Shown here piece after piece: positions 3,145 through 42,847 of a stretch of 42,847 bases of DNA. The notes below the pieces were generated by a model. That model worked only from the letters and a program-made list of their open reading frames with translations, was not told the origin of the DNA and did not search any database. The stretch comes from a virus (taxonomy: Duplodnaviria > Heunggongvirae > Uroviricota > Caudoviricetes), in IMG/VR virus record IMGVR_UViG_3300045988_015629; one strand, 5' to 3'. The first letter of the stretch is position 1; each line of letters starts with the position of its first letter. Position numbers and translations under genes: made by a program.

Positions 3145-3235
3145 TCCGTTACCTGCCCGCGCCGCGGTCGCTTGTTCATACTTCACAAGCTCAGGTGGAG
3201 CTTAGCACATTTTTGGTGAAAAGTCAACTATTCGA
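3145..3235 (-). promoter_or_regulatory. conserved promoter-plus-leader element A (TTGACT-N17-TAAGCT, then a 38-nt core identical to element B containing a hairpin)
   Basis: -35 at 3222-3227 and -10 at 3199-3204 on the minus strand; core 3158-3195 is identical to 14005-14042. Confidence 0.55.
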
Positions 3236-3292
3236 ATAGTTTATTCCAACATTTACAATTGAGTGGAATAACTGGAATAGTCACAGGCACTA

Positions 3293-11724: not shown

Positions 11725-12221
11725 GTTTTACATACTTTCGTACCGAACGGCGCGGAGCCATCTGTTATTACATAATAGAAACTGTGTTTGCACTCCTGTG
11801 TACAGGCTGTTGCCCCATACTCAAGTCCGTCCCACTCACGCTTGCCGCATTCGCAGCAAAACAGGCTACCGGGCACGTTGTCCTTGTTGCCTTCGGCAAT
11901 AAACAATCCTGGAGCGATAATCCAATTGTGGTCACATTCCTGCGTATCTTCTTTTCGGCAACCAGATTGCTCCGAACCGTACGCACCTTTGCGGATAAGT
12001 TTGTATGCCTCCACGTCACCAGTAGCCTCGGCCAATGCCAGACGCAACTCCTTAACTTGCCCTGTCAGGTGCGATATGTGCTCAGATTTCTTAATGTTGT
12101 CTTCCCGCAACTCCTTAATCTGCACCTCATGCGCCAGGTCTTCGCACCGGTTGTTATTTACCTGATGCCGTAGCTGGTCAATCAGGTGCTCGAATACTTC
12201 GTTTTTGTTACTCACCATCAC
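11706..12221 (-). CDS. cysteine-rich putative zinc-binding protein (171 aa)
   Basis: Predicted coiled-coil N-terminus, C-terminal CCECG...CKTCG cysteine clusters. Confidence 0.45.
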   Translation of the reverse strand: MMVSNKNEVFEHLIDQLRHQVNNNRCEDLAHEVQIKELREDNIKKSEHISHLTGQVKELRLALAEATGDVEAYKLIRKGAYGSEQSGCRKEDTQECDHNWIIAPGLFIAEGNKDNVPGSLFCCECGKREWDGLEYGATACTQECKHSFYYVITDGSAPFGTKVCKTCGEYF

Positions 12222-12423
12222 CGTCCCCTTCCTCGCTAATTAGTTCGAATTTACCGTTTGCGTGCTTAATGGCTTCTTGCCCACAATGGTCGCAAACCAA
12301 CAGTTTATCGAACCCATCAAACTCATCCCCTACCACGCAAGACAGTACAAATTTATGCTTGGTGCATACTTCTTGCGGAGCACCGAAAATTGCGTGAAAA
12401 CATCTCGCCACTGCATTAAACAT
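12208..12423 (-). CDS. small zinc-binding protein (71 aa)
   Basis: C...C/H...CDHCG pattern and acidic tail; first gene after the promoter at about 12445-12480. Confidence 0.45.
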   Translation of the reverse strand: MFNAVARCFHAIFGAPQEVCTKHKFVLSCVVGDEFDGFDKLLVCDHCGQEAIKHANGKFELISEEGDGDGE

Positions 12424-12444: not shown

Positions 12445-12480
12445 GTGTAAATGAATAGTAGCTTATTCTATCTTAGTGTG
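12445..12480 (-). promoter_or_regulatory. conserved early-type promoter, divergent copy (TTGCAC-N17-TACTAT with embedded GAATAG dyad)
   Basis: Related to the 36-bp elements at 13744-13779 and 35655-35690. Confidence 0.45.
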
Positions 12481-12490
12481 CAAGTAAATT

Positions 12491-13143: not shown

Positions 13144-13332
13144 TCATACCAGAACCTCACATTCATCCCGATACACGAACAATAACGACCCTTTGTACTC
13201 AATCATAAAACCATAATGGTTGATGCTGAACGCCGGAAAAACATCACCTACCGAGATACCGAAATCTATAAGCCTGCGGTCAGTTATACGGACAAGCCTG
13301 CGGTCAGTTATACGGATTCGCATTAACGGCAA
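13144..13332 (-). CDS. hypothetical protein containing an 8-aa tandem repeat
   Basis: Encodes RITDRRLV RITDRRLI from a 24-bp tandem duplication at 13269-13316. Confidence 0.35.
   Translation of the reverse strand: MPLMRIRITDRRLVRITDRRLIDFGISVGDVFPAFSINHYGFMIEYKGSLLFVYRDECEVLV
13269..13316. repeat. 24-bp tandem direct repeat x2 (AGCCTGCGGTCAGTTATACGGA core)
   Basis: Two adjacent copies, 23/24 identical, read directly. Confidence 0.8.
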
Positions 13333-13526
13333 CCTCCCTCAGAGTCGTCGGCACAAGCATCACGATTCGATGCCGTTCGTATTGCTCGTAAGCTATTTAA
13401 CATTCGCTCGCTGGTAGATGTAATAACCGTTATACCGTCCGCCAGATGCACCTCGTAGCGTTCAGCTACGAAATATATTTCCTCGAAATCATGATGTTTC
13501 AGTTCTTCAAATAATTCTTCCATCAC
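13323..13526 (-). CDS. hypothetical acidic early protein (67 aa)
   Basis: ORF in early operon. Confidence 0.4.
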   Translation of the reverse strand: MMEELFEELKHHDFEEIYFVAERYEVHLADGITVITSTSERMLNSLRAIRTASNRDACADDSEGGCR

Positions 13527-13714
13527 TTCGCCCCTTTAAATTTAAAATTTTTGCCGATGAGTTTTAAGTTCTCCTCCGCTACGTATATTTGTGAATTTAC
13601 TCCTCTCACATTTTGCACGGTAACTACGTACTTTCCTGGAAATAAAGCAGATTTTAATTCAATTATGCCGTGTTTATCGTCGGAGTATTTAACCAACTGA
13701 CCACGTTTAAACAT
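13523..13714 (-). CDS. hypothetical early protein, first gene of the leftward early operon
   Basis: ATG at 13714 with AGGAG RBS; track ORF uses GTG at 13723. Confidence 0.45.
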   Translation of the reverse strand: MFKRGQLVKYSDDKHGIIELKSALFPGKYVVTVQNVRGVNSQIYVAEENLKLIGKNFKFKGAK

Positions 13715-13743
13715 AACCCTCACTCCTCTGTCTCGTTTCGATA

Positions 13744-13779
13744 AGTGAATAGTATCCTATTATGTTGGGGTGTGCAAGA
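13744..13779 (-). promoter_or_regulatory. conserved 36-bp early promoter element (minus-strand TTGCAC-N17-TACTAT; contains GAATAG-N4-CTATTA dyad)
   Basis: About 33/36 identical to 35655-35690 in the opposite orientation. Confidence 0.55.
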
Positions 13780-13989: not shown

Positions 13990-14080
13990 TCGTTTCGCCT
14001 GCCGCGCGCCGCGGTCGCTTGTTCATACTTCACAAGCTCAGGCTGAGCTTACCATATTTTTAAGTAAAAGTCAATACCGG
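13990..14080 (-). promoter_or_regulatory. conserved promoter-plus-leader element B (paralog of element A)
   Basis: -35 TTGACT at 14069-14074 and -10 TAAGCT at 14046-14051 on the minus strand; core 14005-14042 identical to 3158-3195. Confidence 0.55.
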
Positions 14081-14121
14081 TAGCATCTTTTGTATCTTAG
14101 TAACTTTGTGTGGTGTTTTGG

Positions 14122-14150
14122 TTGCTTTTACATTCCCGCTATCCTATACT
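14122..14150 (+). promoter_or_regulatory. sigma70-like promoter TTGCTT-N17-TATACT for the rightward replication operon
   Basis: Hexamers with 17-bp spacing about 35 bp upstream of the first plus-strand gene. Confidence 0.45.
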
Positions 14151-14181
14151 TGGCTTCACCAAACAAACAGGAGATTTAAAA

Positions 14182-14364
14182 ATGCAACATTACATGACCC
14201 AGAATGAAGTAGCCGAGCGTATCGGGGTGACACGTCAGACAATTAATAACTGGTTGCGCAGTGGTAAATTCCCGGATTGTTGTATTAAGGTTATGGGCCG
14301 CCGGATGCCGGGAACATTCGACCGTAATAAAGTTGAAGCGTGGATTAAGGAGAACGTGAAATGA
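14182..14364 (+). CDS. small HTH DNA-binding protein (excisionase/AlpA-like fold inferred)
   Basis: MTQNEVAERIGVTRQTINNWLRSGKFP helix-turn-helix signature; ATG at 14182 with GGAG RBS (track ORF uses GTG at 14110). Confidence 0.6.
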   Translation: MQHYMTQNEVAERIGVTRQTINNWLRSGKFPDCCIKVMGRRMPGTFDRNKVEAWIKENVK

Positions 14365-14594
14365 TTGGGCGTATGGGTTGTAGCTTCCGCGAAGACGGCA
14401 GCATTAAATATTATTTCAAGATTGCGTCAAATATAACCGACGATGGGTGTTATGTAGAACTTTTCCCTTATAACTTTTGTGGACCCACTAAAATAGTTAA
14501 ATTTTCTATAGAGGATATCCTTGATTGCAGTTTTTACCGTAGCGAAGGAGAGTGGGTTAATGCGGTGCGTAGACAAAAGAAACCCCAACGCTAG
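14361..14594 (+). CDS. hypothetical protein (77 aa), AT-rich
   Basis: ORF with noticeably lower GC than its neighbours. Confidence 0.4.
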   Translation: MIGRMGCSFREDGSIKYYFKIASNITDDGCYVELFPYNFCGPTKIVKFSIEDILDCSFYRSEGEWVNAVRRQKKPQR

Positions 14595-14644
14595 AACGTC
14601 GGGGCCGAAGCATAAATCATCAAAGTAAGCACAAGGATTATACA

Positions 14645-14773
14645 ATGACGAAGTTAATAGTTCCACAGCTACGCCGCCAGAAACACGGCGCTGATTTCTT
14701 CGCACCGGTAAAGATGAACCGCGCAATGCGCCGTATGCAGGAAGCCTTAGAACGTGCGGAGAAAAAGAAATGA
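14645..14773 (+). CDS. hypothetical small basic protein (42 aa)
   Basis: Hand-translated ORF whose stop overlaps the primase-helicase start. Confidence 0.3.
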   Translation: MTKLIVPQLRRQKHGADFFAPVKMNRAMRRMQEALERAEKKK

Positions 14774-17031
14774 ATATTGTTTTTGCAACGCTGCGTAACA
14801 CATTCGATAAAAACCCTGTAGCGCGTGAAATGCCGCTGGAGCAGTTCGTAGAGTATGTCTGTGATACATCGAAGCGTTTATCCGTGGACCCGTCGTGGAC
14901 TAAGGAAGAGTACGACGCCGCCAAGATTAAACAGAAAGCTATCGCACCTGTTGGTGGTCGCCGTAAGAACGCGATTCTGGAAGACAGTGTGGTTAAGTTC
15001 GACTTTGACCATCTCAACCGTACTCAGTACCGCAACCTGACACGCAAATTTAAGAATGCGCCGTTCTTCAACATTCTGCATACAACGGCGTCACACCGGC
15101 ACGCGTGCAAAAACGGGGATTACGCCTTCCGCGTTCTGGTTCCGGCTCGCACGCCGTTTAACTCTAACGATGCGTGGATGGTGCAACGTGCTATTTGTGC
15201 CGAGTTAGAAATAGACGAAGCATTGCGCGACCACTGCACGGAAGACGGCAATCGCCTTATCTACCTGCCGCATAAAGAGTCAAAGATAACGGTTACAGAA
15301 GGGCGGGTTATCCGTGCTGAGCGGTACATCAAGAAAGCCGAAGAGATGGGATTGCGTAAGCGTGAAGCTAAGACGCTTGCTGCCGATGAGCACGGGCTTA
15401 ACGCAGATATAGCCCATTTCTGCGAAGCTGAGTTAGGTCTTGACGCTCTATCTTCCGGCCGCGGGTACGAAGTGCCTTGCCCTAACGAACACCTGCACAC
15501 CGGAAAAGGTTCCACCAGCATTATGCTTGACGGTAAAGAAGTGCGCTTCGTGTGCCAGCACACAAACAACGGCGCTTGCACTGAACTTAACCGTCGACAA
15601 CATTTGGCCTTGCGTATGTGCGGACTGCCAGACGAGCTTAACGTAGACAAGCAACCTATCAGTATTAACAGCATTCGTGCGGCTTTGCCGGATTTACCGG
15701 ACGAAGAGATTGAGGAATTGCACCGCACAGAGAACGAAGAGCCTGTAACTTGCACGCTGGAAGACCTTGAAGACGAGCCGGAAGTAGAAAAAGAACCTGC
15801 TTACTCCGTCGTAGACGGCCTTATGCAGACTAATGAATCCTTCTACATTTGCGCAAAGTCCCACACTGGTAAGTCAACATTTAGTATGGCGATTGACGCC
15901 GCTATTGCCGCTGAAAAAAGATATGCGTTCGGCGGGGCTGAGGTCGCAGAAGGACATGCGTTCATTTTTGCGGGTGAAGGTGCGCAGTCGTTCGAGCGAC
16001 ATAAAAAGTCTTTGCAGATTGCCCTCGGGGATAGCCTGGACCGCTTGCACATTATCGATTGTGTCGCCGATGGGTGTAATTTACTTGATGAGGCGTGGCG
16101 CCGCCAGGCGGTGAGAATGATGCGCCGTGTTGCCGGTGAAGAGAAAATTGTAAAGGTTACGTTTGATACCCTACAAACTTGCATACCGGGCTTCGACGAA
16201 AACGATAACAGGTCGATGAAAGAAGCGGCGCAGGCGCTTAACGAAATAGCGGCAACGCTTAACGCTGCGGTCGGCGCTATGGTGCACCCGACTAAAAACA
16301 TCGACGAAACTGTGCCGTCTGAAAACGGCATGATGCCGAAGGGTGGAAGTGATTTTCACAACTCCATCGATAACGGGATGTTCCTGCATAAACCAGACAA
16401 CGACAATAACTTAGAGATAAACCTGTATCACATAAAGAACCGAAATGGAGAACGGCAGAAAGCCAGAGGATTCGTAATACAGAAGATTAAGATAGCGGAG
16501 CCGCCGGAAAAGAAAGAACCAACTCACAACTTCATGGGGCTTCCGGAAGGGTATAGCAGTGATGATGTGCGCGATTTTGACGCGGGAAATCCGCATATTG
16601 ATGTCTTTGTCAACTTCAACGCCTTCTCTGTCTTTGTGAAGAAAGTAGAAGGTATGACTGACGAACAGAAGGAAGCCGTTAAAGAAAAGGTAGGCCAGTT
16701 CGAGAAACTGGATTCCAAAGAGGCTACGGTTATTTACGCATTAGGTAAATTGCAGGAGCAAGGCGACGACAAGCGAGGGTTCTCTATGTCAGCTATCGTC
16801 AAAGCGGCGAAAGAAGATAGTTACGGCGTACCGATTAACGCTAATAACGACCTTCGAAAGAAACTGGAAGAGATGCACGAGGCGGGGGTTATCGTCTCTG
16901 GGCTGGATAACAACAACAGGCCCATCCCTAAGCAATACAGGTTGCCGTGGGGTATAAACGACAACAAAATTCCTAAGACAATATACGAACCGAATGAAAT
17001 GCTGACAGTGACAGAGGAGGATTTGGAATAG
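14770..17031 (+). CDS. DNA primase/helicase (zinc-binding primase-like N-terminal region plus RecA-like P-loop domain)
   Basis: Cys/His cluster CPNEHLH...CQHTNNGAC; Walker A AKSHTGKST; 753 aa at the head of the replication module. Confidence 0.65.
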   Translation: MNIVFATLRNTFDKNPVAREMPLEQFVEYVCDTSKRLSVDPSWTKEEYDAAKIKQKAIAPVGGRRKNAILEDSVVKFDFDHLNRTQYRNLTRKFKNAPFFNILHTTASHRHACKNGDYAFRVLVPARTPFNSNDAWMVQRAICAELEIDEALRDHCTEDGNRLIYLPHKESKITVTEGRVIRAERYIKKAEEMGLRKREAKTLAADEHGLNADIAHFCEAELGLDALSSGRGYEVPCPNEHLHTGKGSTSIMLDGKEVRFVCQHTNNGACTELNRRQHLALRMCGLPDELNVDKQPISINSIRAALPDLPDEEIEELHRTENEEPVTCTLEDLEDEPEVEKEPAYSVVDGLMQTNESFYICAKSHTGKSTFSMAIDAAIAAEKRYAFGGAEVAEGHAFIFAGEGAQSFERHKKSLQIALGDSLDRLHIIDCVADGCNLLDEAWRRQAVRMMRRVAGEEKIVKVTFDTLQTCIPGFDENDNRSMKEAAQALNEIAATLNAAVGAMVHPTKNIDETVPSENGMMPKGGSDFHNSIDNGMFLHKPDNDNNLEINLYHIKNRNGERQKARGFVIQKIKIAEPPEKKEPTHNFMGLPEGYSSDDVRDFDAGNPHIDVFVNFNAFSVFVKKVEGMTDEQKEAVKEKVGQFEKLDSKEATVIYALGKLQEQGDDKRGFSMSAIVKAAKEDSYGVPINANNDLRKKLEEMHEAGVIVSGLDNNNRPIPKQYRLPWGINDNKIPKTIYEPNEMLTVTEEDLE

Positions 17032-17037
17032 GTAAAA

Positions 17038-17064
17038 ATAAAGGGGCGTTAAGCCCCTTCACCC
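17038..17064. terminator. bidirectional terminator between the convergent primase-helicase and XRE genes
   Basis: AGGGGC-GTTA-GCCCCT hairpin with A-run upstream. Confidence 0.55.
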
Positions 17065-17264
17065 AACGCCAGCCACTTGGCGTCTACTTGCAGCACTTCC
17101 GCCAGTTTAAACAGCGTCGCTGGGCGGACGTCCTGAGTTACCCCAAGTGCCAGCTGGTTAATCGCGCCTTGGGAAACACCGGCCAGGACAGCCAGATGGC
17201 GCTGGGAGATACCGAGTTCTTTACGGCGTTGCTCTACACGGATACCTAGTTCAGATGGTTGCAT
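17049..17264 (-). CDS. XRE-family HTH transcriptional regulator (Cro/CI-like)
   Basis: LGISQRHLAVLAGVSQGAINQLALG is a canonical XRE helix-turn-helix; AAGGAG RBS; opposite strand to its neighbours. Confidence 0.75.
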   Translation of the reverse strand: MQPSELGIRVEQRRKELGISQRHLAVLAGVSQGAINQLALGVTQDVRPATLFKLAEVLQVDAKWLALGEGA

Positions 17265-17285
17265 GCCAATTACTCCTTAGTCAGT

Positions 17286-17357
17286 TGATATGTGAATAGT
17301 ACCATATTAATTATTTTAGAAAAGCCCATTGACAAGTGAATAGTTCGCTATTATAGT
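17286..17357. promoter_or_regulatory. divergent promoter/operator region: plus-strand TTGACA-N17-TATAGT at 17329-17357 and two GAATAG-N4-(C/A)TATTA dyads
   Basis: Dyads at about 17294-17309 and 17338-17353. Confidence 0.55.
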
Positions 17358-17388
17358 TAGCCCATACCAAACGAGAGGAGAGAAACAA

Positions 17389-17910
17389 ATGTTAGAGAAA
17401 TTCTTGGTATTACTGGAACGTTTCGTAGTCGCCCACGAACTGATTGCTGCAAACAGTGTGAAACAACCGACTAGCAAATCTGTAGGTGAATTGACTGTTG
17501 ACGTCGCGGTAACTGGGGTAGAGACAGTTAAAAAAGAACTGGCTAAAGCACTTGAAGAAGTCGAGAAGGCGAAAGAAATCCCGGTTGAAGGTGAAGACAT
17601 CGTCGACACTAAACCAGCAGAAGAAGAGAAGCCGAAGCGCAAGCCGCGTAAGGACAAAGTAGAGGAACCAACGCCAGAGCCGGAAGAAGAGAAAGAAGAA
17701 GTCGATTACCAGTCTCTGCGCGACCAGATTCAGGCTATCGACGATGCGATTAACGAAGGCCCAAGCGATGCCGCGTGCGACGATTCTGACGAACTGCTGG
17801 AAGAGTTTACCGGTAAGAAGATGAAGATTGCAGCGATTAAAGACGAAGACCTGGCTGAGTATCTGGAGCGCCTGACAGCAATCAAGAACAAGTATTTCGA
17901 AGAAGAATAA
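17389..17910 (+). CDS. highly acidic protein (173 aa), function unknown
   Basis: E/D/K-rich low-complexity middle section, acidic C-terminal part. Confidence 0.5.
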   Translation: MLEKFLVLLERFVVAHELIAANSVKQPTSKSVGELTVDVAVTGVETVKKELAKALEEVEKAKEIPVEGEDIVDTKPAEEEKPKRKPRKDKVEEPTPEPEEEKEEVDYQSLRDQIQAIDDAINEGPSDAACDDSDELLEEFTGKKMKIAAIKDEDLAEYLERLTAIKNKYFEEE

Positions 17911-17911
17911 C

Positions 17912-17938
17912 TATCCCGCGGCCTTCGGGCCGCTTTAA
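17912..17938 (+). terminator. terminator-like hairpin after the acidic protein gene
   Basis: GCGGCC-TTCG-GGCCGC followed by TTTA. Confidence 0.4.
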
Positions 17939-17953
17939 CTGAGGGTCGGAATT

Positions 17954-18226
17954 ATGATTTACCAACTCTACCGCGCCGTAGACAGGCGGGATAGCACAGA
18001 GGCGCTATGGCTGTTACGTGCGCCGTCTGGCTCGCACCAGATGGAAGATATGGCGTACTTAGGCAAAGTGCCACGGCCTAAAGACATAGGCCGCCACGTG
18101 TCACATATTAAGCGCACGACTTTCGCCAAACCGGACTTTTACGTCTTCGAGTCGATGTATGGCTGGGCTATGCACTGCGACCATAAGACACGACATTTAA
18201 TTGACCAGTGGGAGAGCAGGGTATGA
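17954..18226 (+). CDS. hypothetical protein (90 aa)
   Basis: ORF whose stop overlaps the exonuclease start (ATGA). Confidence 0.45.
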   Translation: MIYQLYRAVDRRDSTEALWLLRAPSGSHQMEDMAYLGKVPRPKDIGRHVSHIKRTTFAKPDFYVFESMYGWAMHCDHKTRHLIDQWESRV

Positions 18227-19473
18227 TTTTAAAGGAACGCGGCGGCAATAACGATGTGCACGCCTTACTGTCGCCGTCTGGCGCTAAAAAGTGGCTGGCG
18301 TGCAGTGCATCACTGGCCTGTGAGAAAGATATTCCCAACACGTCTGGTAAAGCCGCCGTTACAGGGACTGCATGCCACACCATAGCGGAGATGCACCTTA
18401 ACCAGTACATCAAAGGCACTGCTCTGCCATTAGAGCGTGAAGTCGGCGCTTACGTGCTGGATGAAGGTAAAGGCCAGATTAAGGCGCTAATCAGCCCAAT
18501 GAAAGGCGCGGTACTGATTACGGCGGACATGATTGAGCAGGTGCGCAAGTACACCGACTACTGCAAAGCGATTATCGACGTAGCGACTTACGCCAAGCTG
18601 GAAATGCGAGTCAATCTTACTGAGGTATTGCATCCTGGGTATGAAGGTGTCGAGACGTTCGGAACGGCTGACCTCGTTGCTGTCCAGGAACTGGCGAACA
18701 CCGACGAGCACATGCTCATTATTGGCGACCTTAAAACTGGACGGCATCGTGTTGAAGCGAAAGAAAACAAGCAGCTTATGCTTTACGCTCTCGGTGTTTA
18801 TCGCCGACTCAAGAGACGTTATAACATCACAGTAGTGCGCCTGGTCATCTTCCAGCCGTACGCGGGGGGTGCGTCAGAGTGGGACATCTCGGTCGAAGGT
18901 CTGGAACTGTTCGCTAAGTTCGCACAGAAACGGGCACTGTTAGCGCTTGATGCTTATTTCCGTGGAAAGAAGAACCTGAAAGCGTCGGACTTTAAACCGT
19001 CGGTCGATGGTTGCCAGTGGTGCCGGTTCTCTGAACAGTGTGCCGCGCGTACAAAGACGGTTAATTCTGTACTGGCGGAAGAACTTGAAGACGACTTTGT
19101 GCTGGAACTGACGACGGAGCAACTCGTAGTTGAGTATGAGAAGTTGCCGCTGTTGCGCCAGCACATCGACAAGGTTGAGAAAGCGATGTCCGCCGCATTG
19201 CATTCCGGTAAGAAAGTGCCAGGGTACAAACTGGTAGAAGGCCGCCCGGGTAATCGTGCGTGGAAAGATGCCGATGCGATTGAAGTGTCACACGGCGACA
19301 TTCTCAAAAAAGAGGTATTGATGTCCCCTACGGAGGCAGCAAAAGTTCTTTCTGCGGATGAGATGGCAGCGCTTGAGCCGTTTATTACCCGTAAGCCAGG
19401 CGCACCATGTGTCGCAACGGCAGACGACAAACGTCCTGAGTGGAATCAGGTTAGTGAAGAAGATTTGGAATAA
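18223..19473 (+). CDS. PD-(D/E)XK exonuclease with C-terminal cysteine cluster (RecB/Cas4-like)
   Basis: GTADLVAV...IGDLKTG and QLMLYALG motifs plus C...CQWCRF..C; ATG at 18223 with GGAG RBS. Confidence 0.7.
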   Translation: MILKERGGNNDVHALLSPSGAKKWLACSASLACEKDIPNTSGKAAVTGTACHTIAEMHLNQYIKGTALPLEREVGAYVLDEGKGQIKALISPMKGAVLITADMIEQVRKYTDYCKAIIDVATYAKLEMRVNLTEVLHPGYEGVETFGTADLVAVQELANTDEHMLIIGDLKTGRHRVEAKENKQLMLYALGVYRRLKRRYNITVVRLVIFQPYAGGASEWDISVEGLELFAKFAQKRALLALDAYFRGKKNLKASDFKPSVDGCQWCRFSEQCAARTKTVNSVLAEELEDDFVLELTTEQLVVEYEKLPLLRQHIDKVEKAMSAALHSGKKVPGYKLVEGRPGNRAWKDADAIEVSHGDILKKEVLMSPTEAAKVLSADEMAALEPFITRKPGAPCVATADDKRPEWNQVSEEDLE

Positions 19474-19477
19474 AGTG

Positions 19478-19506
19478 TTGACACCCGAATAGTTAGCTAT
19501 TATAGT
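19478..19506 (+). promoter_or_regulatory. conserved promoter TTGACA-N17-TATAGT with embedded GAATAG-N4-CTATTA dyad
   Basis: About 25/29 identical to the 17329-17357 promoter. Confidence 0.55.
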
Positions 19507-19559
19507 TCTAATCACTGGCCGGGCAGTTCCCGGAGTAAACTGAAAAGCGAGAAATCACG

Positions 19560-20186
19560 ATGGGTATTAAACTGAATCTGCGTAAAGTAAACACTGCATG
19601 GGTTAACGTATTCGAACGCGAAAAAGACCGTGAAAACGATGATGGCTCAATCACTAAAGGCCAGTACAGCGCGACTATCATCCTGCCGTCTGACCACGCA
19701 CAAATCGACGCGCTCTACGACACCGTTTACGCTGTGGTTGAAGATGCGTTGGGCGCAGCTGCCGCTGAGAAGTGGATGAAGTCCAACTACGGCGAAGGTA
19801 AGCACATGGATAAATGTGCGATTAAAGACATTGCCGAGCGCGACAATCCGTTTGAAGACTTCCCGGAAGGCTTCTACTTCAAGGCGAAGGCACAGAAACA
19901 GCCACTGATTGTAACCTCTAAAAAAGGCGAGACTCAGGTAGAACAGGACTTCAATGTAGACGGCGAACAGATTGAAGGTGAACAGGTTTACAGCGGCTGC
20001 GTCGCTAACGTAAGCGTTGAAATCTGGTTCAGCCAGAAATACAAAGTCCTCGGCGTTAACCTGCTGGCTATTAAATACGTTGGTGAAGGTAAAGCGTTTG
20101 GCGGTTCTAAAGTAGCCGCAAGCGTCGATGACCTTGAAGACGATGAAGAGGATGAAGCACCGCGCCGCGAACGTCGTCGCCGTTAA
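19560..20186 (+). CDS. putative single-stranded DNA-binding protein
   Basis: 208 aa with an acidic C-terminal tail (DDLEDDEEDE) between the exonuclease and polymerase genes; call from context, not motif. Confidence 0.4.
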   Translation: MGIKLNLRKVNTAWVNVFEREKDRENDDGSITKGQYSATIILPSDHAQIDALYDTVYAVVEDALGAAAAEKWMKSNYGEGKHMDKCAIKDIAERDNPFEDFPEGFYFKAKAQKQPLIVTSKKGETQVEQDFNVDGEQIEGEQVYSGCVANVSVEIWFSQKYKVLGVNLLAIKYVGEGKAFGGSKVAASVDDLEDDEEDEAPRRERRRR

Positions 20187-20203
20187 TATCTGAATCAATT
20201 TAA

Positions 20204-20232
20204 CTAAGGCCCTTCATTGGGCCTTTTTACTA
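20204..20232 (+). terminator. rho-independent terminator
   Basis: AAGGCCC-TTCATT-GGGCCTT followed by TTTT. Confidence 0.6.
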
Positions 20233-20245
20233 AGGGTCGAAAATA

Positions 20246-22426
20246 ATGAGTTACCTGTTCTTAGACTTTGAAACATTCTCCGAAGCCGATTTGAAGAAAG
20301 TTGGTTCCTACGCTTACGCTGAGCATCCAACTACCGAAGTCCTTATTTGTACATATGCTTTTGACGACGAGCCTGTGCGGGTATGGGATTGCACAGACGG
20401 CAGCGACATGCCGGGGGATTTGCACCGCGCGTTACGCCGTCTGGTGAAACCAAATAGTCGCATTAAGATGGTATGGCACAACGGCTCAATGTTCGACAGG
20501 CTCATCATGAAACACTGCTGGGGCTTTGATATTCCCGTAAGCAACACCATTGATACGATGATTTGGGCGTTTCGTCACGCGCTGCCGGGCTCACTTGATG
20601 CGCTGTGTGAAGTGCTTGGCGTGTCTGCTGACAATGCAAAAGATAAACGCGGCAAGGCGCTGATTCAGCGTTTCTCTAAACCGACACCGAAGAATTACAA
20701 AATCCGCCGCTACACCGCAGAAACACACCCGGACGAGTGGGCGCTGTTCATCAAGTACGCCGTGAGCGACATCACTGCGATGCGTGAAGTCTTCCATAAG
20801 CTGCCGCGTTGGGGTAACTCTGAGTTCGAAGACCGTGTACTGGAACTGGACCAGTTAATCAACGACCGCGGGTTTAAGGTTGACGTTGCACTGGCGGAAG
20901 CCGCTATTGAAGCCGTGGAGAAACACAAAGCGCAGTTACAGGAGGAAGCCCAACGCAAATACGGCGGCTCGCTTACTGGTAAGGACTTTCTGCCGATTCT
21001 TCGTGAACTCGCCCCTGCACACCGCATACACAACGCACAGAAGTCGACGCTTAACGACCTGCTGGCGGACGATGATTTACCGGACGACGCACGCACAATT
21101 ATCGAAATGCGCCTCGGGGCCGCGTCCACCGCGTCAACGAAATATAACCCGCTGCTGTTGGGCCGCTCGTCTGACGACCGACGCCGTGGTTGCATACAAT
21201 ATGGTGGAGCTAAGCGTACGTTACGGTTTGCAGGTAAAGGCTTCCAGCCGCAGAACCTCGCGCGCGGGTACTATCACGATGATGAACTGGATAAAGGAAT
21301 TTCTGCGTTACTTAAGGGCCGCGCTCATCGTCGATTTGACGTAGCCAAGCTAACGGCATCTACCGTTCGTAGCTGCATCATACCGGAAACTGGACATAAG
21401 TTTGTCGTTGCCGATTACTCTAACGTCGAAGGCCGCGGGCTTGCGTGGCTGGCGGGGGAAGAAACCGCGCTAGATACGTTCCGTGCCGGACTGGATATTT
21501 ACTGCGTAACCGCGGGTAAGATGTTCGGTATGGAGCCGGATTACATTAAGAAAGAACGTAAAGATTTGCGCCAGATTGGTAAGGCCTGCGAACTTGGGCT
21601 TGGCTATGCGGGCGGTGTCGGCGCATTCGTACAGTTCGCCAAGAACCTTGGCCTTGACCTGGTTGATATGGCAAAAACAATGGATGGGACTTTCCCCGAC
21701 CACATCTGGGCCGCTACCGCACGTGGATATGAGTGGGCGCGTATTCAGGAAACCAAGCGACCACCACGTCCAGGTGAAAAGGATGACCGACCATCATATA
21801 TTCTTGATAAGAAAGTGTGGCGTACCTGTGACGCTATCAAGCGCATGTGGCGCGAGTCTCACCCGGAAACAGTAGCTTTCTGGCGAGATATTGAAGATGC
21901 AGCTATGGCGGCTATCCGCAACCCAGGTAAAGAGTTCACCGCAGGGCCGCGGGGCGTTAAGTTTTCGCGTAACGTAGAAACGGACAACAACGGCAACAAA
22001 GTCGCCGGTTGGTGGTTGCGGATGACGTTGCCGTCGGGCCGCGTTATGTCTTATCCGGGTGTTGGGCTAAGCGTGTCGAAAGAGACAGACGAAGACGGGA
22101 AGGTGTCTACCAACGTGCGCATCAAGTACCAGGGCGAAAACCAGTTAACCCGTCAGTGGGGCTTCCAGTACACCTACTCTGGTAAACTGGTGGAAAACTG
22201 CACTCAGGCGCTGTGCCGTGATTTGTTGGCTAATGCACTGCTGAACGTCGAAGCAAACGGCTACCCGATTGTTCTTCACGTACACGATGAGATTATCTGC
22301 GAGACACCAGATTTACCGGAATACAATGTAGATGAACTGGAGAAATTAATGTGTGCGTTGCCTGAGTGGGCAGAAGGCTTCCCTCTTGTAGCAGAAGGTG
22401 CGGAGATGAAGCGTTATGCCAAGTAA
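20246..22426 (+). CDS. DNA polymerase, family A, with 3'-5' exonuclease domain
   Basis: Exo motif FLDFETFS, motif A DYSNVEGRG, motif B RQIGKACELGLGYAGG, motif C VHDEI. Confidence 0.9.
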   Translation: MSYLFLDFETFSEADLKKVGSYAYAEHPTTEVLICTYAFDDEPVRVWDCTDGSDMPGDLHRALRRLVKPNSRIKMVWHNGSMFDRLIMKHCWGFDIPVSNTIDTMIWAFRHALPGSLDALCEVLGVSADNAKDKRGKALIQRFSKPTPKNYKIRRYTAETHPDEWALFIKYAVSDITAMREVFHKLPRWGNSEFEDRVLELDQLINDRGFKVDVALAEAAIEAVEKHKAQLQEEAQRKYGGSLTGKDFLPILRELAPAHRIHNAQKSTLNDLLADDDLPDDARTIIEMRLGAASTASTKYNPLLLGRSSDDRRRGCIQYGGAKRTLRFAGKGFQPQNLARGYYHDDELDKGISALLKGRAHRRFDVAKLTASTVRSCIIPETGHKFVVADYSNVEGRGLAWLAGEETALDTFRAGLDIYCVTAGKMFGMEPDYIKKERKDLRQIGKACELGLGYAGGVGAFVQFAKNLGLDLVDMAKTMDGTFPDHIWAATARGYEWARIQETKRPPRPGEKDDRPSYILDKKVWRTCDAIKRMWRESHPETVAFWRDIEDAAMAAIRNPGKEFTAGPRGVKFSRNVETDNNGNKVAGWWLRMTLPSGRVMSYPGVGLSVSKETDEDGKVSTNVRIKYQGENQLTRQWGFQYTYSGKLVENCTQALCRDLLANALLNVEANGYPIVLHVHDEIICETPDLPEYNVDELEKLMCALPEWAEGFPLVAEGAEMKRYAK

Positions 22427-22628: not shown

Positions 22629-22916
22629 ATGAGTACGCCTGAGGGGCGCGTGCAGAAATACGCAAAAGAGCGATTCGAGGCCCTGGGAGGCCTCGTACGC
22701 AAATTGTCGTACGAAAATAGAGCGGGCGCCCCCGACCTGCTGGTAATTCTCCCTGGTGGCATCATCTGGTTCGTCGAGGTTAAGAAAGACGAAAACACGA
22801 AGCCGGACCCGCACCAGTTACGAGAGCACGAGCGGATGCGTAAACGTGGTGCAAATGTTTTTGTCGTTGGTTCGTTTAAACAGGTTGACGACCTAATAGC
22901 GGGCTATTATAGTTAA
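22629..22916 (+). CDS. VRR-NUC domain nuclease
   Basis: PDLLVIL...WFVEVKKD PD-(D/E)XK arrangement typical of VRR-NUC; 95 aa. Confidence 0.65.
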   Translation: MSTPEGRVQKYAKERFEALGGLVRKLSYENRAGAPDLLVILPGGIIWFVEVKKDENTKPDPHQLREHERMRKRGANVFVVGSFKQVDDLIAGYYS

Positions 22917-25576: not shown

Positions 25577-25608
25577 AGAAAAGGCCCCGTTTGGGGCCTT
25601 AGTTTTAT
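25576..25608. terminator. bidirectional rho-independent terminator at the replication/tailspike convergence
   Basis: GGCCCCGTTTGGGGCC hairpin flanked by AGAAAA and TTAGTTTTA. Confidence 0.75.
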
Positions 25609-28559
25609 TTATCTTCTAGTGCTGCCAGCCTCTTCTCGAACTCGCGCATCTTCTTACGCTGATAGGCAATCTCTATGAAGAACATCTGGTCCGCCCTAAC
25701 CCCCCATCTGCCGCCGGGAGGGGATACTTGTACAGTCTGACCATCTTCATCAATATCATACGTAGCTTCAATTGAGTCGTAGCACAAGAAAGCATATTTA
25801 CAGTATGTAGAACCCTCCTCCATAAGCCCATGGTTGACCAAGATGTCTCGCACATCTTGGGCTATCACACCGAAGTGTATCCTTGCAGTGTCACCCTTGA
25901 TTGCTAGGCTTTCAAGCCACTTAAAAGATATTACATGTATATCCTCCCATGCGGTAAGGAGTTGTCCCTCAATTTCCTCTTTGTTCGTCTTAAGTGTACC
26001 ATCAGACGTGTTTATCGTACCGGTGGTCGCGTACACCGTAGTCCACCTATTACCTGCCGAACCTAAAGACACTTGCGAGTCTAAGTAAGGAAGGAAATTG
26101 TTGTATGAGTAGAAGCCTCCTGACGCATACATAATAGCCCTGTTAGGCCTTGCATGGTTTGCCCCGTACAGTTGCAGCAACGCACCATCGGAACTGGATG
26201 CACCATCACCACCGCTAACTATCAGTCTTTGACCCGATGGGGTTTTAGTGGGGACTGTTTTTGAAATCAGCCCGTAATCACCATCAAACCGTGCACGCAC
26301 GGCAGACTGTTGTGTGCCATCATATTCCAGACCAGTTACATGCAGGGAGTACACGCTTACATCATTGTCAAACGTTAAAGGTGCTTCTACATGGCGTACA
26401 CCATCTACCCCCATGGCGACAGGTATTGTACGGTTAGGAGTTGCTCCGTATTTGAAATCACGTGATACATACGGGTGGTCTTCAATCTTTATCCGGTAGC
26501 TATATAAGTCAGCCGGGTGCCCATCATGTTTGTACCATAACTTCGCACTGTTATCCCCGATGCTCCAGGGAGAGAAGAAGTCTTCCCCTCCAAAGATATA
26601 GTACAACCAGCCATCTTTAACACAGACAGAGCCGACGCCGACGGCAGTGTTAACGATATGGCCCTGGTATATTTGGTCGGTAATATTAAACCACTGAACA
26701 TCATCTAAAGATGAAGGCCAGGACGACACATTGACTTTGCACATAAAGGTCCTCGGATACGAACCTTCATAGCGGCTGCCCGGCTCGCCACCTTCCCACT
26801 CACCAAATGCACGTTCTGTACCAAAGATGTAGAGATAGTCACCTACTTTAGCGAACGGAAGATTGGAGTGATGTACATTGTTCGGGAATCGCAAGTAGCT
26901 CCAGTTTTGCCCAGAATCGGTGCTCATCGCCAGTGTAGAGCCGGGGGAAGTAGGTAATGTGCCGCGTGTGGTAAGGTAGAGCACACCGCCATAACTTTTC
27001 ACACACGGCTCAGAAGCGTTATCAGCGTATGCCTGAGCGACAGTGCGACGAACGAATACGCCTGGATTGTCATACACGTTACTAAAATACAAGACACCGA
27101 GACGCCGAGGGGACACATCGCCGTTGTGATAGCCGACAGCGATAGTGTAGTTAGCATCATCTATAACCGCAAAACTATGTGTCTCCGTGACACACAAATC
27201 AGCGTTAGTGGAGTATGCCACCCCCGGCAATTCGGTAATTTCCCATGGGCTGTCCCAGAATAGCGTTGCGAAGTTCCAGGTAACCCCCGCATTGTTTATG
27301 GTGGAGCCCGCAGGGCTTGAGAGCGTAACAGTGAACGTATTTCGGTTAATTATAGACGCAACCGTCATATTACCCGATACGCCAGTTGCCGATGTATTAG
27401 AGAAGTTAACCGCATCTCCTGCTTTTAGGCCATGATTTTCTATGACAATGGTAGCAGTAGTGGAGCCAGAACTAATAGTTATTCCGCCGGTTGGGTGTCT
27501 AAAATACGGCATTGGGCGTGACCAAAGTTCTGCCTTCTTCATCCGCATATTAGATAAGTAGCGGGTTTCTATAACTGCATATAATCGGTTGCCGCACGTA
27601 CCCATGCTCATGCAGTGGTAGTTAACTCTGTCCGTAGAAACACTAGCATTATAGTCAGCATGGATTGGAGTCAACCACTCAGGCATTGACCAAGTCTGCC
27701 CGTCGTCTCCAGAGCGAACCCAAGCTACATGTAAGTTTTGAACACCATGTCGTTCGCCCGCCATAAACGGGGCGTAAATAACATGGTCGTAGACGAAAGT
27801 TTTATCCTGCGTCCATGCGTTGTAGAACGGGGTATCCGTCACCTTAGTTAGTGAGCCGTTAAAGAAGCCATCAGCTACATAAGTAAGCGGTTGCCCGGCT
27901 ACGCGCTCGTAAACGAATGCAGCATTCTTAAATTTACTAATGTCAGGTAATTGGGAAACTTTATAAGTCAAACCCCTGCCGTCTATAATCCAATTGTTGG
28001 GGGAAGCTGCTAATACATTAAAAATAGATTGAGTATCATCAGTTACGCCGTCGCCCACGGCGCCCCATGCGCGCGGGTCGTATTCGTCCTTCCATCGCGC
28101 CACATGTAAATCTGGGTACAGAATTGCACCGTTTACATCAGATATTTGCTGCCGCAGTATGACCGACCCGACAGGCTGCCACGCCCCATCTGCCACGCCA
28201 CCGGTGGACTGCGGAGAAGATGACGCCGGGATAATTTTTGGTAGAGCACCCAACCAATAGTACCAATCCCCGTCACCGCCAGAGGACGACGGCCACAAAA
28301 CTGCGGTGTTTCGGTCGTTAGCGGATAGTGTACCGCCTGACGTGAAATCAAAATCTGCCAGTTTAAAACCAGCATCACGCAACACGGCAGGTAACGTCTT
28401 CTGGGTCTGTCCAGTAACCTGATTTGTCGCGTAATCAATATCGGCACCACCGGCGACACCGCCGGATTTGCCAGTGGTAACCTCGGCCTCGAAAATCTGA
28501 TGTTTCTTGGCGGTTTGTAAATCCGCCAGGCTTAAAACGTCACCGCATCCGCTTGACAT
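25605..28559 (-). CDS. tailspike / tail fibre protein with C-terminal intramolecular chaperone (peptidase S74-like) domain
   Basis: 984 aa; C-terminal ...SLGSAGNRWTTVYATTGTINTSDGTLKTNKEEIEG... resembles the autoproteolytic chaperone domain of endosialidase-type tailspikes; RBS AAAGAGGA. Confidence 0.75.
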   Translation of the reverse strand: MSSGCGDVLSLADLQTAKKHQIFEAEVTTGKSGGVAGGADIDYATNQVTGQTQKTLPAVLRDAGFKLADFDFTSGGTLSANDRNTAVLWPSSSGGDGDWYYWLGALPKIIPASSSPQSTGGVADGAWQPVGSVILRQQISDVNGAILYPDLHVARWKDEYDPRAWGAVGDGVTDDTQSIFNVLAASPNNWIIDGRGLTYKVSQLPDISKFKNAAFVYERVAGQPLTYVADGFFNGSLTKVTDTPFYNAWTQDKTFVYDHVIYAPFMAGERHGVQNLHVAWVRSGDDGQTWSMPEWLTPIHADYNASVSTDRVNYHCMSMGTCGNRLYAVIETRYLSNMRMKKAELWSRPMPYFRHPTGGITISSGSTTATIVIENHGLKAGDAVNFSNTSATGVSGNMTVASIINRNTFTVTLSSPAGSTINNAGVTWNFATLFWDSPWEITELPGVAYSTNADLCVTETHSFAVIDDANYTIAVGYHNGDVSPRRLGVLYFSNVYDNPGVFVRRTVAQAYADNASEPCVKSYGGVLYLTTRGTLPTSPGSTLAMSTDSGQNWSYLRFPNNVHHSNLPFAKVGDYLYIFGTERAFGEWEGGEPGSRYEGSYPRTFMCKVNVSSWPSSLDDVQWFNITDQIYQGHIVNTAVGVGSVCVKDGWLYYIFGGEDFFSPWSIGDNSAKLWYKHDGHPADLYSYRIKIEDHPYVSRDFKYGATPNRTIPVAMGVDGVRHVEAPLTFDNDVSVYSLHVTGLEYDGTQQSAVRARFDGDYGLISKTVPTKTPSGQRLIVSGGDGASSSDGALLQLYGANHARPNRAIMYASGGFYSYNNFLPYLDSQVSLGSAGNRWTTVYATTGTINTSDGTLKTNKEEIEGQLLTAWEDIHVISFKWLESLAIKGDTARIHFGVIAQDVRDILVNHGLMEEGSTYCKYAFLCYDSIEATYDIDEDGQTVQVSPPGGRWGVRADQMFFIEIAYQRKKMREFEKRLAALEDK

Positions 28560-35647: not shown

Positions 35648-35690
35648 TTGCACACCCCAATATAATAGGGTACTATTCACTTACACCAAC
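35648..35690. promoter_or_regulatory. conserved 36-bp promoter element, divergent (plus-strand TTGCAC-N17-TACTAT for the island; minus-strand promoter for the chaperone/tape-measure operon)
   Basis: Reverse complement is about 33/36 identical to 13744-13779. Confidence 0.55.
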
Positions 35691-35691
35691 A

Positions 35692-35898
35692 ATGAAGGGG
35701 TTTAAAATGTCCAGTTTACCAGTTTCCTTAATTCTGTTTGCACTGCTCGCTTATTTCGCGCCTTTCCTGGTTGCGTACTTCCGTAACCATAAAGCGAAGT
35801 TAGCGATATTCATGGCTAATCTGTTTCTTGGTTGGGTTCTGCTGCCGTGGGTATTTATCTTAATCTGGGCGTGCAACTCGAATGTCAAAGAGAAGTGA
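35692..35898 (+). CDS. small membrane protein (2 TM helices)
   Basis: Two hydrophobic helices; RBS GAAGGGG before the second ATG at 35707. Confidence 0.55.
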   Translation: MKGFKMSSLPVSLILFALLAYFAPFLVAYFRNHKAKLAIFMANLFLGWVLLPWVFILIWACNSNVKEK

Positions 35899-35935: not shown

Positions 35936-37066
35936 ATGGCCAGGAAGAAAATAACCGACGAACAGTTACAGGAAGAATTGAACGCCGGTATGAAGAATAT
36001 CGACATCGCCCGTAAATACGGCATCTCCGACCGCGTTATTCGTATCCGTAAAGCGAAGCTGGCTAAGAAAGGTGTAGGCCACGGGCGTGACGTTAGTTAC
36101 CTTGTACCGGACGGCTACAAGATTAAAGGAACGTCATCACTGGTGGATGAGTTTGGCAACACCAAGTTGCAATGGGTTAAGACCGACACCGATGCCGAAC
36201 GTCAGGTTGAATTGATGAAAGCCGTAATCGAAGGCATGAAGTCGGAGATTACACCAGTTGCACCTGTTAAAGCCGTTCGCGCCAAACGAGACGACAAGCT
36301 ACTCAACCTTTACACTGTGTCTGATTTCCATCTCGGTATGCTGGCCTGGGCTGACGAGAGCGGCGACGACTGGGACATGAAGATTGCGGAAGACCTGTTC
36401 TCCCGCTGGTTCGACGCAGCGTTCCAGAAAGCACCGGATGCCGGAACAGGAGTTATTAATCTGCTGGGCGACCTTGCGCATTTCGATAGTCTGGACGCCG
36501 TTACACCTGCCAGTGGTCATGTTCTTGACGCTGACACCCGCTATCAGAAACTTGTACGCTACATGATTCGTATGGTCCGCCGTGTCATTGATATGGCTCT
36601 CGTTAAACATAAAAATGTTCGCTTGCTTATCGTGCAAGGTAACCACGACGAAAGCGGAATGATTTGGTTAGCTGAGATGTTTAGTACGCTGTACGACAAT
36701 GAGCCGCGTGTGTTCGTCGATACGTCGCCGGATGTTTACAAGATGGTGCAACACGGCAAAACGACGCTGTTCTTCCATCATGGGCATAAAGCACGATTCG
36801 ACGCTATCGAACCGGTTATGATCGCCAAGTTCCGCAAAGCGTTCGGCGAGAGTGTTTACAGCTACGCCCACGTGGGTCACCTGCACCACCAAAAGATTGT
36901 AGAAAGCCGTAACATGATTGTTGAGCAACACCGCACTCTCGCGGCTAAAGATGCATATGCCTCCCGCGGTGGGTGGATGTCGGGCCGCAGTGCAAACGTA
37001 ATTACTTATAGCGCCGAATATGGCGAGGTCGCACGTTTAACTATTTCACCGGAGATGCTTGGATGA
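35936..37066 (+). CDS. calcineurin-like metallophosphoesterase with N-terminal HTH domain
   Basis: MPP motifs SDFHLG, LLGDLAHFD, VQGNHDE, FHHGHK, HVGHLHH; N-terminal 40 aa resemble a helix-turn-helix. Confidence 0.75.
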   Translation: MARKKITDEQLQEELNAGMKNIDIARKYGISDRVIRIRKAKLAKKGVGHGRDVSYLVPDGYKIKGTSSLVDEFGNTKLQWVKTDTDAERQVELMKAVIEGMKSEITPVAPVKAVRAKRDDKLLNLYTVSDFHLGMLAWADESGDDWDMKIAEDLFSRWFDAAFQKAPDAGTGVINLLGDLAHFDSLDAVTPASGHVLDADTRYQKLVRYMIRMVRRVIDMALVKHKNVRLLIVQGNHDESGMIWLAEMFSTLYDNEPRVFVDTSPDVYKMVQHGKTTLFFHHGHKARFDAIEPVMIAKFRKAFGESVYSYAHVGHLHHQKIVESRNMIVEQHRTLAAKDAYASRGGWMSGRSANVITYSAEYGEVARLTISPEMLG

Positions 37067-41175: not shown

Positions 41176-41688
41176 TTAACCCCGGTACACATTAAATGAG
41201 AAGCCGTTGTTAAGACCGCCACACAGTAACGGGCGTAAAGCGTCGTCCGCAGCGGTAATAGCAGTTGTAGCCCCGCTGTTGCCGTTGTTGAAGTAGGTCA
41301 CTGTCACCGCACCCTCGACACGCTCAGTCTGCACGGAACGCCCGTCTGAGTTAGCCCGAACATCAGTACCCGCACCATACGTAACCGCAGCGATTACTTG
41401 TGCCCGGATTAACTGCGACGGGATAACATTATCCGCTACGGTGAAGCCGTTTAGTGTTGTTCCTGTACGTGGGTACGCCAGAGACTGTTCAGCGGATACA
41501 CGGCGGCCGCACATCTGCGTTTCGGCGAGCCCGACATAAGTAGCACCATTGCGCAGAGCTACTTCGGCGTCAGTGTCGTCGGCAGGTAACTCAAGACCGT
41601 AATTAGCCGCTAACGCGCGGGCGTCAGCCAGTGAGATGTACGAATCGGCCCCTTCTATAATTTGACCTGTTTCTACGGTTAAGGACAC
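41176..41688 (-). CDS. head-tail adaptor-like structural protein, putative
   Basis: Position downstream of the HNH gene. Confidence 0.4.
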   Translation of the reverse strand: MSLTVETGQIIEGADSYISLADARALAANYGLELPADDTDAEVALRNGATYVGLAETQMCGRRVSAEQSLAYPRTGTTLNGFTVADNVIPSQLIRAQVIAAVTYGAGTDVRANSDGRSVQTERVEGAVTVTYFNNGNSGATTAITAADDALRPLLCGGLNNGFSFNVYRG

Positions 41689-41691
41689 TTT

Positions 41692-42441: not shown

Positions 42442-42496
42442 GATTCACCCTTTTCAATGGAGGATGGATTCATTATACCAACTACGCCAGATATTA

Positions 42497-42712: not shown

Positions 42713-42847
42713 TTAAGATACAATTGCTCCGGTGCTGCTGGAGATAATATTACCGTATACATCGTGGACAACCACTTTATACGTACCGGAATCGGTAGTA
42801 GCGAGCGAAGTTTTCTCGTAGGTGGCGGCGGTAGCGCCTGGGATAGC
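42713..42847 (-). CDS. Ig-like domain virion protein, C-terminal part of the junction-spanning gene (see 1..271)
   Basis: Frame continuous with 1..271 across the terminal overlap; stop codon at 42713-42715. Confidence 0.6.
   Translation of the reverse strand, partial: AIPGATAATYEKTSLATTDSGTYKVVVHDVYGNIISSSTGAIVS
42793..42847. repeat. 55-bp exact terminal direct repeat (identical to 1-55)
   Basis: Direct comparison of the first and last 55 nt. Confidence 0.95.

Follow-up and report, generated by a model that had tools for sequence, protein, structure and literature searches.

Between the helicase-primase gene and the downstream replication genes of a phage genome, a small gene of the XRE helix-turn-helix (HTH) type is read from the opposite strand, with a terminator behind it and a compact control region in front. 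Positions refer to the window, by which we mean the whole 42,847-nt stretch of DNA analysed. The features of the locus, with promoters, operators and terminator as predicted, are as follows:

14770-17031, plus strand: helicase-primase gene, tail-to-tail with the XRE gene
17034-17062, minus strand: predicted intrinsic terminator of the XRE gene, a 10-bp stem with a 5-nt loop containing the TAA stop, then UUUAUUUUU
17049-17264, minus strand: XRE/Cro-type HTH gene, a 71-aa ORF with an ATG start
17273-17278, minus strand: ribosome-binding site AAGGAG, 8 nt 5′ of the XRE ATG, read from the sequence
17295-17308: putative operator O1, AATAGTACCATATT, with 1 mismatch to the dyad described below, overlapping the likely -10 element of the XRE promoter
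17296-17340, minus strand: XRE promoter region, with two candidates
17296-17301, minus strand: -10 element of candidate 1, a class-II-like CTTTTC-17-TACTAT aligned with the class II promoters
17340-17313, minus strand: candidate 2, TTCACT-16-TAAAAT
17329-17357, plus strand: predicted class I sigma-70 promoter TTGACA-17-TATAGT (11/12), which would drive 17389-17910 and the downstream replication genes
17339-17352: putative operator O2, AATAGTTCGCTATT, a perfect dyad that fills the spacer of the rightward promoter
17389-17910, plus strand: gene for an acidic protein (phrog_3127, function not assigned), head-to-head with the XRE gene

Beyond 17389-17910 lie genes for a DUF2800 nuclease, an Enc34-type ssDNA-binding protein and DNA polymerase A. 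A first-pass annotation of this DNA had placed an XRE HTH gene on the opposite strand between the primase-helicase gene and the downstream replication genes, and this placement stands, the listed elements being present at the coordinates given: the product of the ORF at 17049-17264 (minus strand) matches Pfam HTH_3 (PF01381) at 45.2 bits against a cut-off of 23 (E=9.7e-12, residues 11-65). The top PDB sequence match of the protein is 434 Cro, over its full length (E=1.8e-6, residues 6-68 versus 4-64), and the other best matches are the N-terminal domains (NTDs) of 434 cI and P22 C2. The AF2 model, with a mean pLDDT of 78, is a five-helix bundle (helices 5-17, 21-28, 32-39, 48-57 and 62-66); Foldseek gives it a query-normalised TM of 0.71-0.76 to 434 Cro and 0.77 to the 434 cI NTD, with 0.7-0.8 spanning these and the P22 C2 NTD, and a probability of 1.00 for SinR NTD, 434 cI NTD, 434 Cro and P22 C2. 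By sequence and fold the protein belongs to the 434-Cro-like subgroup of the XRE/HTH_3 family. At 71 aa it ends directly after helix 5, and no C-terminal S24 peptidase or oligomerisation domain is found in it.

Identity of the XRE protein is 92-100% in Kagunavirus-type records and loci, about 50% in Jerseyvirus and about 41% in Cornellvirus, and its AAGGAG ribosome-binding site is unchanged in 36 distinct upstream sequences. More than 500 phage records already carry an annotation of the gene, which is named ‘Cro’, ‘DicA’ or ‘repressor’ in related phages. Because it is already annotated in hundreds of related phages, it is an ordinary regulator and not a hidden lysogeny switch. Across the IMG/VR loci L009-L045 the neighbouring helicase-primase is strongly mosaic, with 31-99% protein identity to that of the window, and the XRE gene beside it stays 92-99% identical (75% in L045). 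In Cornell-like loci L003/L005 (FSL SP-031) and in L008 (vB_SenTO17) the helicase-primase gene is inverted and follows the XRE gene in the same orientation; to judge from this arrangement, the XRE gene heads the helicase-primase operon there.

Two other roles for a small XRE protein were considered and ruled out. No toxin partner, as in a HigA/HipB-type toxin-antitoxin pair, adjoins the gene, whose neighbours are the convergent helicase-primase and the divergent phrog_3127 genes; the gene is monocistronic between its own promoter and its own terminator, which rules out an antitoxin of this type. A restriction-modification (R-M) controller (C) protein is ruled out by the lack of an endonuclease partner and by the position of the methylase gene, 6 kb off behind one of seven dyad promoters.

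The first 55 nt of the window are identical to the last (1-55 and 42793-42847), an overlap left by the assembly of a circular or circularly permuted genome whose true length is about 42,792 bp; the identical ends therefore mark a circularly assembled, complete genome of about 42.8 kb. Nucleotide alignment matches 97.8% of the 42,847 nt to Golestan, RP180, K1H or Jerseyvirus Shelanagig, and the region 14000-20500 has 97% identity with Escherichia phage MirsaeidiM_Esher4 and 88-96% with many Kagunavirus (Guernseyvirinae) phages. The window thus reads as a complete Kagunavirus genome. Its tailspike gene at 25605-28559 (minus strand) encodes a complete endosialidase with a C-terminal S74 chaperone domain, which makes this an E. 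coli phage of the K1G/K1H type that targets the K1 polysialic acid capsule. Only at 41632-42495 does the window lack a nucleotide match to the four Kaguna/Jersey reference genomes; this segment lies in the head-decoration region and holds a 249-aa ORF (41692-42441, minus strand) with no Pfam match. An exact 23-nt tandem duplication (spacing 24) at 13270-13316, within the ORF 13144-13332 (minus strand), gives a repeated RITDRRLV peptide.

The XRE gene had been described as closed by a convergent terminator. The hairpin is there, at about 17038-17062; a U-run follows on the minus strand only, and the plus-strand side reads UUCACCC with no U-tract. This one-sided U-run, together with the stop codon in the loop, points to the XRE gene's own terminator rather than a symmetric bidirectional one. 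The hairpin would be a poor terminator for helicase-primase transcripts, which may, speculatively, run through it antisense to XRE. A counterpart terminator is annotated in Jerseyvirus Shelanagig.

Upstream of the gene, the first-pass annotation had noted two copies of a dyad. The 9-mer GTGAATAGT does occur there exactly twice, at 17292-17300 and 17336-17344, as part of the 14-bp dyad AATAG-N4-CTATT; of the two dyads, however, O2 is the only perfect one, and the element is not local to the XRE gene. By itself the 9-mer shows no genome-wide enrichment, with 13 matches at up to 1 mismatch against 7.9 expected. The dyad at up to 1 mismatch has 12 matches in the window against 1.06 expected (0/100 shuffles), among them 1-mismatch sites at 3219, 4847, 9968 and 11201, and exact copies number 5 against 0.04 expected (p=5e-10), with 0-0.03 exact copies in shuffle controls. 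When all 5-mer dyads with gaps of 0-10 were enumerated without bias, AATAG-N4-CTATT ranked first in the window; the same dyad ranked first in Golestan (8), RP180 (8), K1H (7) and Shelanagig (5), and the runner-up dyads were terminator hairpins. A search for repeats turned up five members of a promoter-like family of 30 nt, at 13738, 17285, 17329, 19478 and 22885.

The dyad is found in seven predicted sigma-70 promoter cores of the window, as five exact copies and two with 1 mismatch (O1 and the site at 12454). It takes two registers relative to the -10 element, lying in the -35/-10 spacer in class I promoters, which are strong and would drive the replication genes, and across the -10 in class II. 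Besides the control region of the XRE gene, the predicted promoters are:

12455-12483, minus strand: class II, TTGCAC-17-TACTAT, with a 1-mismatch dyad at 12454-12467, upstream of 12208-12423 (minus strand)
13749-13777, minus strand: class II, TTGCAC-17-TACTAT, with an exact dyad at 13748-13761 over the -10, facing leftward small early genes (first ORF 13523-13714)
19478-19506, plus strand: class I, TTGACA-17-TATAGT, with an exact dyad at 19488-19501 in the spacer, upstream of the ssDNA-binding and DNA polymerase genes
22885-22913, plus strand: class I, TTGACG-17-TATAGT, with an exact dyad at 22895-22908, upstream of small ORF 22947, a C5-methylase and an SNF2 helicase
35648-35676, plus strand: class II, TTGCAC-17-TACTAT, with an exact dyad at 35664-35677, ahead of a superinfection-immunity gene (35707-35898) and a nuclease and PNK cluster

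Read on the plus strand, the dyad at 13748-13761 lies in the spacer of a weak TCGATA-17-TATGTT element that faces the HTH_17/helicase operon. The site orthologous to 12454 is an exact dyad in Golestan, RP180 and K1H. No operator-free copy of either promoter type was found in the window. A protein bound in either register would exclude RNA polymerase. At the XRE gene itself both predicted promoter candidates overlap O1 and/or O2. The region can be aligned with the class II promoters over the dyad and on into the first transcribed bases. It departs from them in its poor -35 and in the imperfect site O1, the perfect O2 standing at a distance of 44 bp, and the XRE promoter looks like a weakened class II promoter.

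Some further repeats and palindromes were seen. At 3226-3241 a perfect 16-bp palindrome, AACTATTCGAATAGTT, carries the half-sites in swapped order (CTATT-CG-AATAG); it is kept in Golestan, RP180 and K1H and adjoins one copy of a 70-nt repeat (3158-3227 and 14005-14074, 89% identity). On the minus strand this repeat holds TTGACT-17-TAAGCT, then a hairpin (AGCTCAGCCTGAGCT) and a conserved G+C-rich leader, and may be a third promoter/leader class; of the two copies, one points towards the spanin and head genes and the other towards the leftward early genes. The divergent early region of Shelanagig has, at about 36439-36474, a 36-bp perfect palindrome, TAACCTGTAATAATAG-TACT-CTATTATTACAGGTTA, centred on a dyad and far longer than an operator requires.

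A possible alternative is that no protein is dedicated to the dyad: it could descend from promoter sequence multiplied by duplication, or be recognised by a host factor. A stretch of 30 nt is common to the class I promoters at 77-87% identity, and the class II promoters have longer blocks in common, which fits a duplication of promoter cassettes. Because the dyad stands in two different registers relative to the -10, however, it is not simply part of one copied promoter template, and promoter function leaves its symmetry unexplained. Conservation also speaks against such an origin. Dyad sites lie at orthologous positions and promoters in Kagunavirus (Golestan, RP180 and K1H) and in Jerseyvirus (Shelanagig), and the half-sites persist between genera whose flanks have diverged. 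An intergenic alignment of four Kaguna genomes proved too conserved for footprinting and was replaced by IMG/VR sequences, anchored on the XRE start codon and not on the motif: the 135-nt upstream region of 38 Kaguna-type loci, giving 36 distinct sequences. In these, all 10 half-site positions are invariant in both O1 and O2, and variation falls on 3 of the 4 central positions of O2, on 1 central position of O1 and on several flanking positions. O1 stands at -44 and O2 at -88/-89 from the XRE start in 37/37 Kaguna-type IMG/VR loci, and the tandem site pair was found solely at the XRE gene. Half-sites that stay invariant within a sigma-70 spacer while the central 4 bp drift form the pattern that would be expected of an operator for a dimeric HTH protein. 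We regard a dyad without its own binding protein as highly improbable.

The protein that binds the dyad is, in our judgement, quite probably XRE. One line of argument failed here, namely a simple covariation of recognition helix and site. The helix is SQGAINQ in Kagunavirus, SQSLITH in Jerseyvirus and TQSAISH in Cornellvirus; that of Jerseyvirus differs from that of Kagunavirus at 4 positions, yet the half-site is the same, and that of Cornellvirus is close to the Jerseyvirus one, yet there the dyad is absent except for a single degenerate copy, AATAC-N4-CTAAT, in the spacer of the equivalent promoter. No replacement operator came out of a de novo search for dyads in Cornellvirus and TO17; it found only terminators and a GAATA-N3-TATTC element, which is enriched in Cornell-like genomes without the main dyad.

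A firmer connection comes from five unrelated loci of 52-63% G+C (L060, L061, L063, L064 and L065). Each encodes, opposite a cro-like gene, a longer protein (150-230 aa) that begins with a homologous HTH, and every one of the five has helix 3 SQGxIxQ, as in the window's XRE. Three of the five proteins are about 230 aa and CI/LexA-like by length and sequence, and the XRE homologues in L060 and L063 carry an extra 160 aa or so. Exact A[AT]TAG-N4-CTA[AT]T sites in the five loci are confined to an OR-like cluster 31-71 nt upstream, along with OL-like sites; the OR-like clusters contain further one-mismatch sites at 24-bp spacing, and in 4/5 loci an OL-like site or pair lies just past the gene. No HTH_17 gene was found in any of the five. 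These CI-type loci, having similar operators and no HTH_17, therefore tie the HTH subfamily to the operator type independently of HTH_17.

The last point bears on a second DNA-binding gene of the window:

14182-14364, plus strand: HTH_17 (excisionase-like) DNA-binding gene (Pfam HTH_17, PHROG 66)

The ORF list begins this gene at GTG 14110, and its orthologues (183-189 nt) point to ATG 14182. The first-pass annotation had stated that no excisionase partner was visible; an excisionase-like gene does exist, in a phage without an integrase. It is probably a separate early regulator. One possible hypothesis is that the dyads are bound by another phage protein, most plausibly this early HTH_17 product, and that XRE acts only locally or does something else. 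Kagunavirus and Jerseyvirus have HTH_17, and Cornellvirus and TO17 lack it, which is also the distribution of the dyad, so that across the three genera dyad presence tracks HTH_17 as well as XRE. Between Kagunavirus and Jerseyvirus it is the better conserved of the two (84% versus 50%), matching the unchanged half-site; the dyad at 13748 also lies upstream of its gene, and its orthologue K1B4_008 is expressed early. Against this, HTH_17 is replaced in L011 and L025 by unrelated ORFs, with no match even at E<=10, and both loci keep XRE and exact dyads at the orthologous promoters, while unrelated CI-type phages without HTH_17 carry near-identical operators beside an XRE homologue. Small HTH_17/excisionase-type proteins typically bind direct repeats, not 14-bp dyads. 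A PDB sequence search with HTH_17 gave no significant or informative match. Because of L011, L025 and the CI-type loci we downgrade HTH_17 as the binder and hold this assignment to be unlikely.

Taking XRE as the binder, a reading we think reasonably likely is that it is a 434-Cro-like, headpiece-only repressor that regulates its own gene and turns down early and replication transcription during lytic growth. We infer binding, dimerisation, repression and timing alike. An XRE dimer would sit on the 14-bp operator AATAG-N4-CTATT. Host sigma-70 RNA polymerase would fire all early and replication promoters at infection; XRE would then build up slowly or with delay from its weak, imperfectly operated promoter; it would next turn down the host-takeover and replication transcription units; and self-repression would come last. 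Temporal control, as the first-pass annotation had suggested, is thus the best reading of the locus; as for the early-to-middle control named there, a lowering of transcription from early and replication promoters is more likely than an activation.

Published expression data offer limited support for the proposed timing. In the sole Kagunavirus transcriptome, an RNA-seq time course of K1B4, the XRE orthologue, K1B4_004, is classed as ‘middle’ (PMC12645636), a coarse peak-time class that takes in 42/57 genes, the helicase-primase included (PMC12645636). The supplementary gene table gives K1B4_004 as a 216-nt opposite-strand gene adjoining the AAA helicase-primase (PMC12645636). K1B4_008, an ‘early’ HTH gene, was considered as the XRE orthologue and rejected, the supplementary gene table showing it to be the orthologue of HTH_17; it is one of only four early-class genes (PMC12645636). 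In the literature we found no work on operators or promoters of Guernseyvirinae, and no published account of the operator and its regulon.

Another alternative is that XRE is left over from, or still takes part in, a lysogeny-type decision, be it pseudolysogeny, a carrier state, or immunity of the repressor type towards superinfecting relatives. Homology links the protein to the DNA-binding domains of CI and Cro from temperate phages; through operators on the early and replication promoters it would be able to shut down, in trans, a related genome that enters the cell; and the phage has genes for an immunity-like membrane protein and an excisionase-like protein. Set against these points, no integrase or recombinase, partition or protelomerase gene was found in the window, by Pfam scans of large ORFs and by way of annotated relatives covering 97.8% of it. 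The earlier description of the phage as integrase-less holds, since that 97.8% aligns to annotated, integrase-free Kaguna/Jersey genomes and neither the one uncovered ORF nor the other large ORFs scanned contain a recombinase domain. A CI gene is likewise missing, with no S24/CI domain among the Pfam-scanned ORFs and none annotated in the same relatives, and XRE itself lacks an S24 or oligomerisation domain at its C-terminus. Every homologue with at least 74% identity lay on a contig no longer than 45 kb, 185,579 species-representative genomes contained no relative above 45% identity, and a 3.5-kb query with the helicase-primase, XRE and downstream DNA had no match in 5,426 complete E. coli genomes. 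Papers on the relatives describe strictly lytic, clear-plaque phages; in some the gene appears as ‘transcriptional repressor DicA’ with no further remark, and others say that a repressor is absent. We judge a lysogeny-type role to be very unlikely.

The same evidence bears on two readings of the earlier annotation. It had likened the locus to a CI/Cro switch; there is one repressor only, the divergent product of 17389-17910 being a phrog_3127 protein without an HTH and not a second repressor. It had also raised a pseudolysogeny decision, which finds no footing in homologues restricted to phage-sized contigs, with no prophage copies found and a literature of strictly lytic phages. With no CI partner, integrase or prophage copy, the bistable-switch and pseudolysogeny readings are therefore unsupported.

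The preferred reading of XRE as a Cro-like regulator of lytic growth has practical consequences. Phages of the genera Kagunavirus and Jerseyvirus are widely put forward for therapy and for biocontrol in food, and CM001 serves as a synthetic-biology chassis. The labels ‘repressor’, ‘DicA’ and ‘Cro’ that annotation pipelines attach to the gene can raise a lysogeny flag or be ignored; recognising it as a Cro-like regulator of the lytic cycle, whose operator is defined and whose regulon is predicted, would clear this safety question. The predicted regulon is also a testable transcription map of an understudied, very common phage group, and one repressor with graded repressible promoters makes a compact engineering set. 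The gene itself is already annotated; what is new is the dyad operator with its predicted regulon. The case illustrates cleanly how a virulent phage can reuse a lysogeny-type DNA-binding module to control timing, a principle that is not new. We offer as a tentative extension, doubtful as it stands, that a strictly lytic subfamily kept only the headpiece of a temperate CI/Cro lineage and copied its operator into its sigma-70 early and replication promoters, gaining both a genome-wide delayed-feedback timer and superinfection immunity in trans, or ‘repressor immunity without lysogeny’. XRE would act as such an immunity factor because every early promoter of a related incoming genome carries the site.

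Several known systems invite comparison. The C proteins of R-M systems (C.AhdI, C.BclI) resemble the window's XRE in size and fold (Foldseek TM 0.72-0.74); these small XRE proteins bind dyads in their own promoters and serve as delayed-feedback timers, and the XRE promoter of the window is likewise weak and would be self-operated. Their sequence similarity to XRE is weak, however (E=0.15-0.95), and the window has no restriction enzyme gene; the dyad promoter at 22885 does precede a C5-methylase, but it is one of seven. The L5 repressor with its stoperators also pairs one small repressor with many copies of its site along the genome for global control of transcription. L5, a Cluster A mycobacteriophage, is temperate, and its sites are asymmetric 13-mers inside transcription units that act as roadblocks; those of the window differ in being symmetric and in lying in promoter cores.

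A further comparison is with the CI repressors of L060, L063, L064 and L065, whose N-terminal HTH is homologous to XRE (36-43% identity) with helix 3 SQGxIxQ, and whose A[AT]TAG-N4-CTA[AT]T sites have the same length and spacing and a near-identical half-site. These repressors are 150-230 aa long with a C-terminal domain, face a cro-like gene and use OR/OL-type clusters, whereas the window has the headpiece alone in a lytic genome. The remaining comparison is with the Cro proteins of 434 and lambda. A place for XRE in a lambdoid CI/Cro switch was rejected, both the CI partner and the temperate context being absent. The phage of the window differs from 434 and lambda in having no opposing CI gene and no tripartite OR shared by two repressors, and in not being temperate; its operators are found in seven promoter cores genome-wide rather than at OR/OL only, with the half-site AATAG rather than ACAA. 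XRE and 434 Cro are both 71 aa, with about 40% identity and the same five-helix XRE bundle. The operators of 434 have a 14-bp geometry, equal to that of the dyad in the window. In 434, as here, dyad operators (14 bp) lie over core promoter elements and the gene diverges from the control region that bears them, and the role that we propose for XRE, the turning down of early transcription and of its own synthesis, would be that of 434 and lambda Cro in lytic growth.
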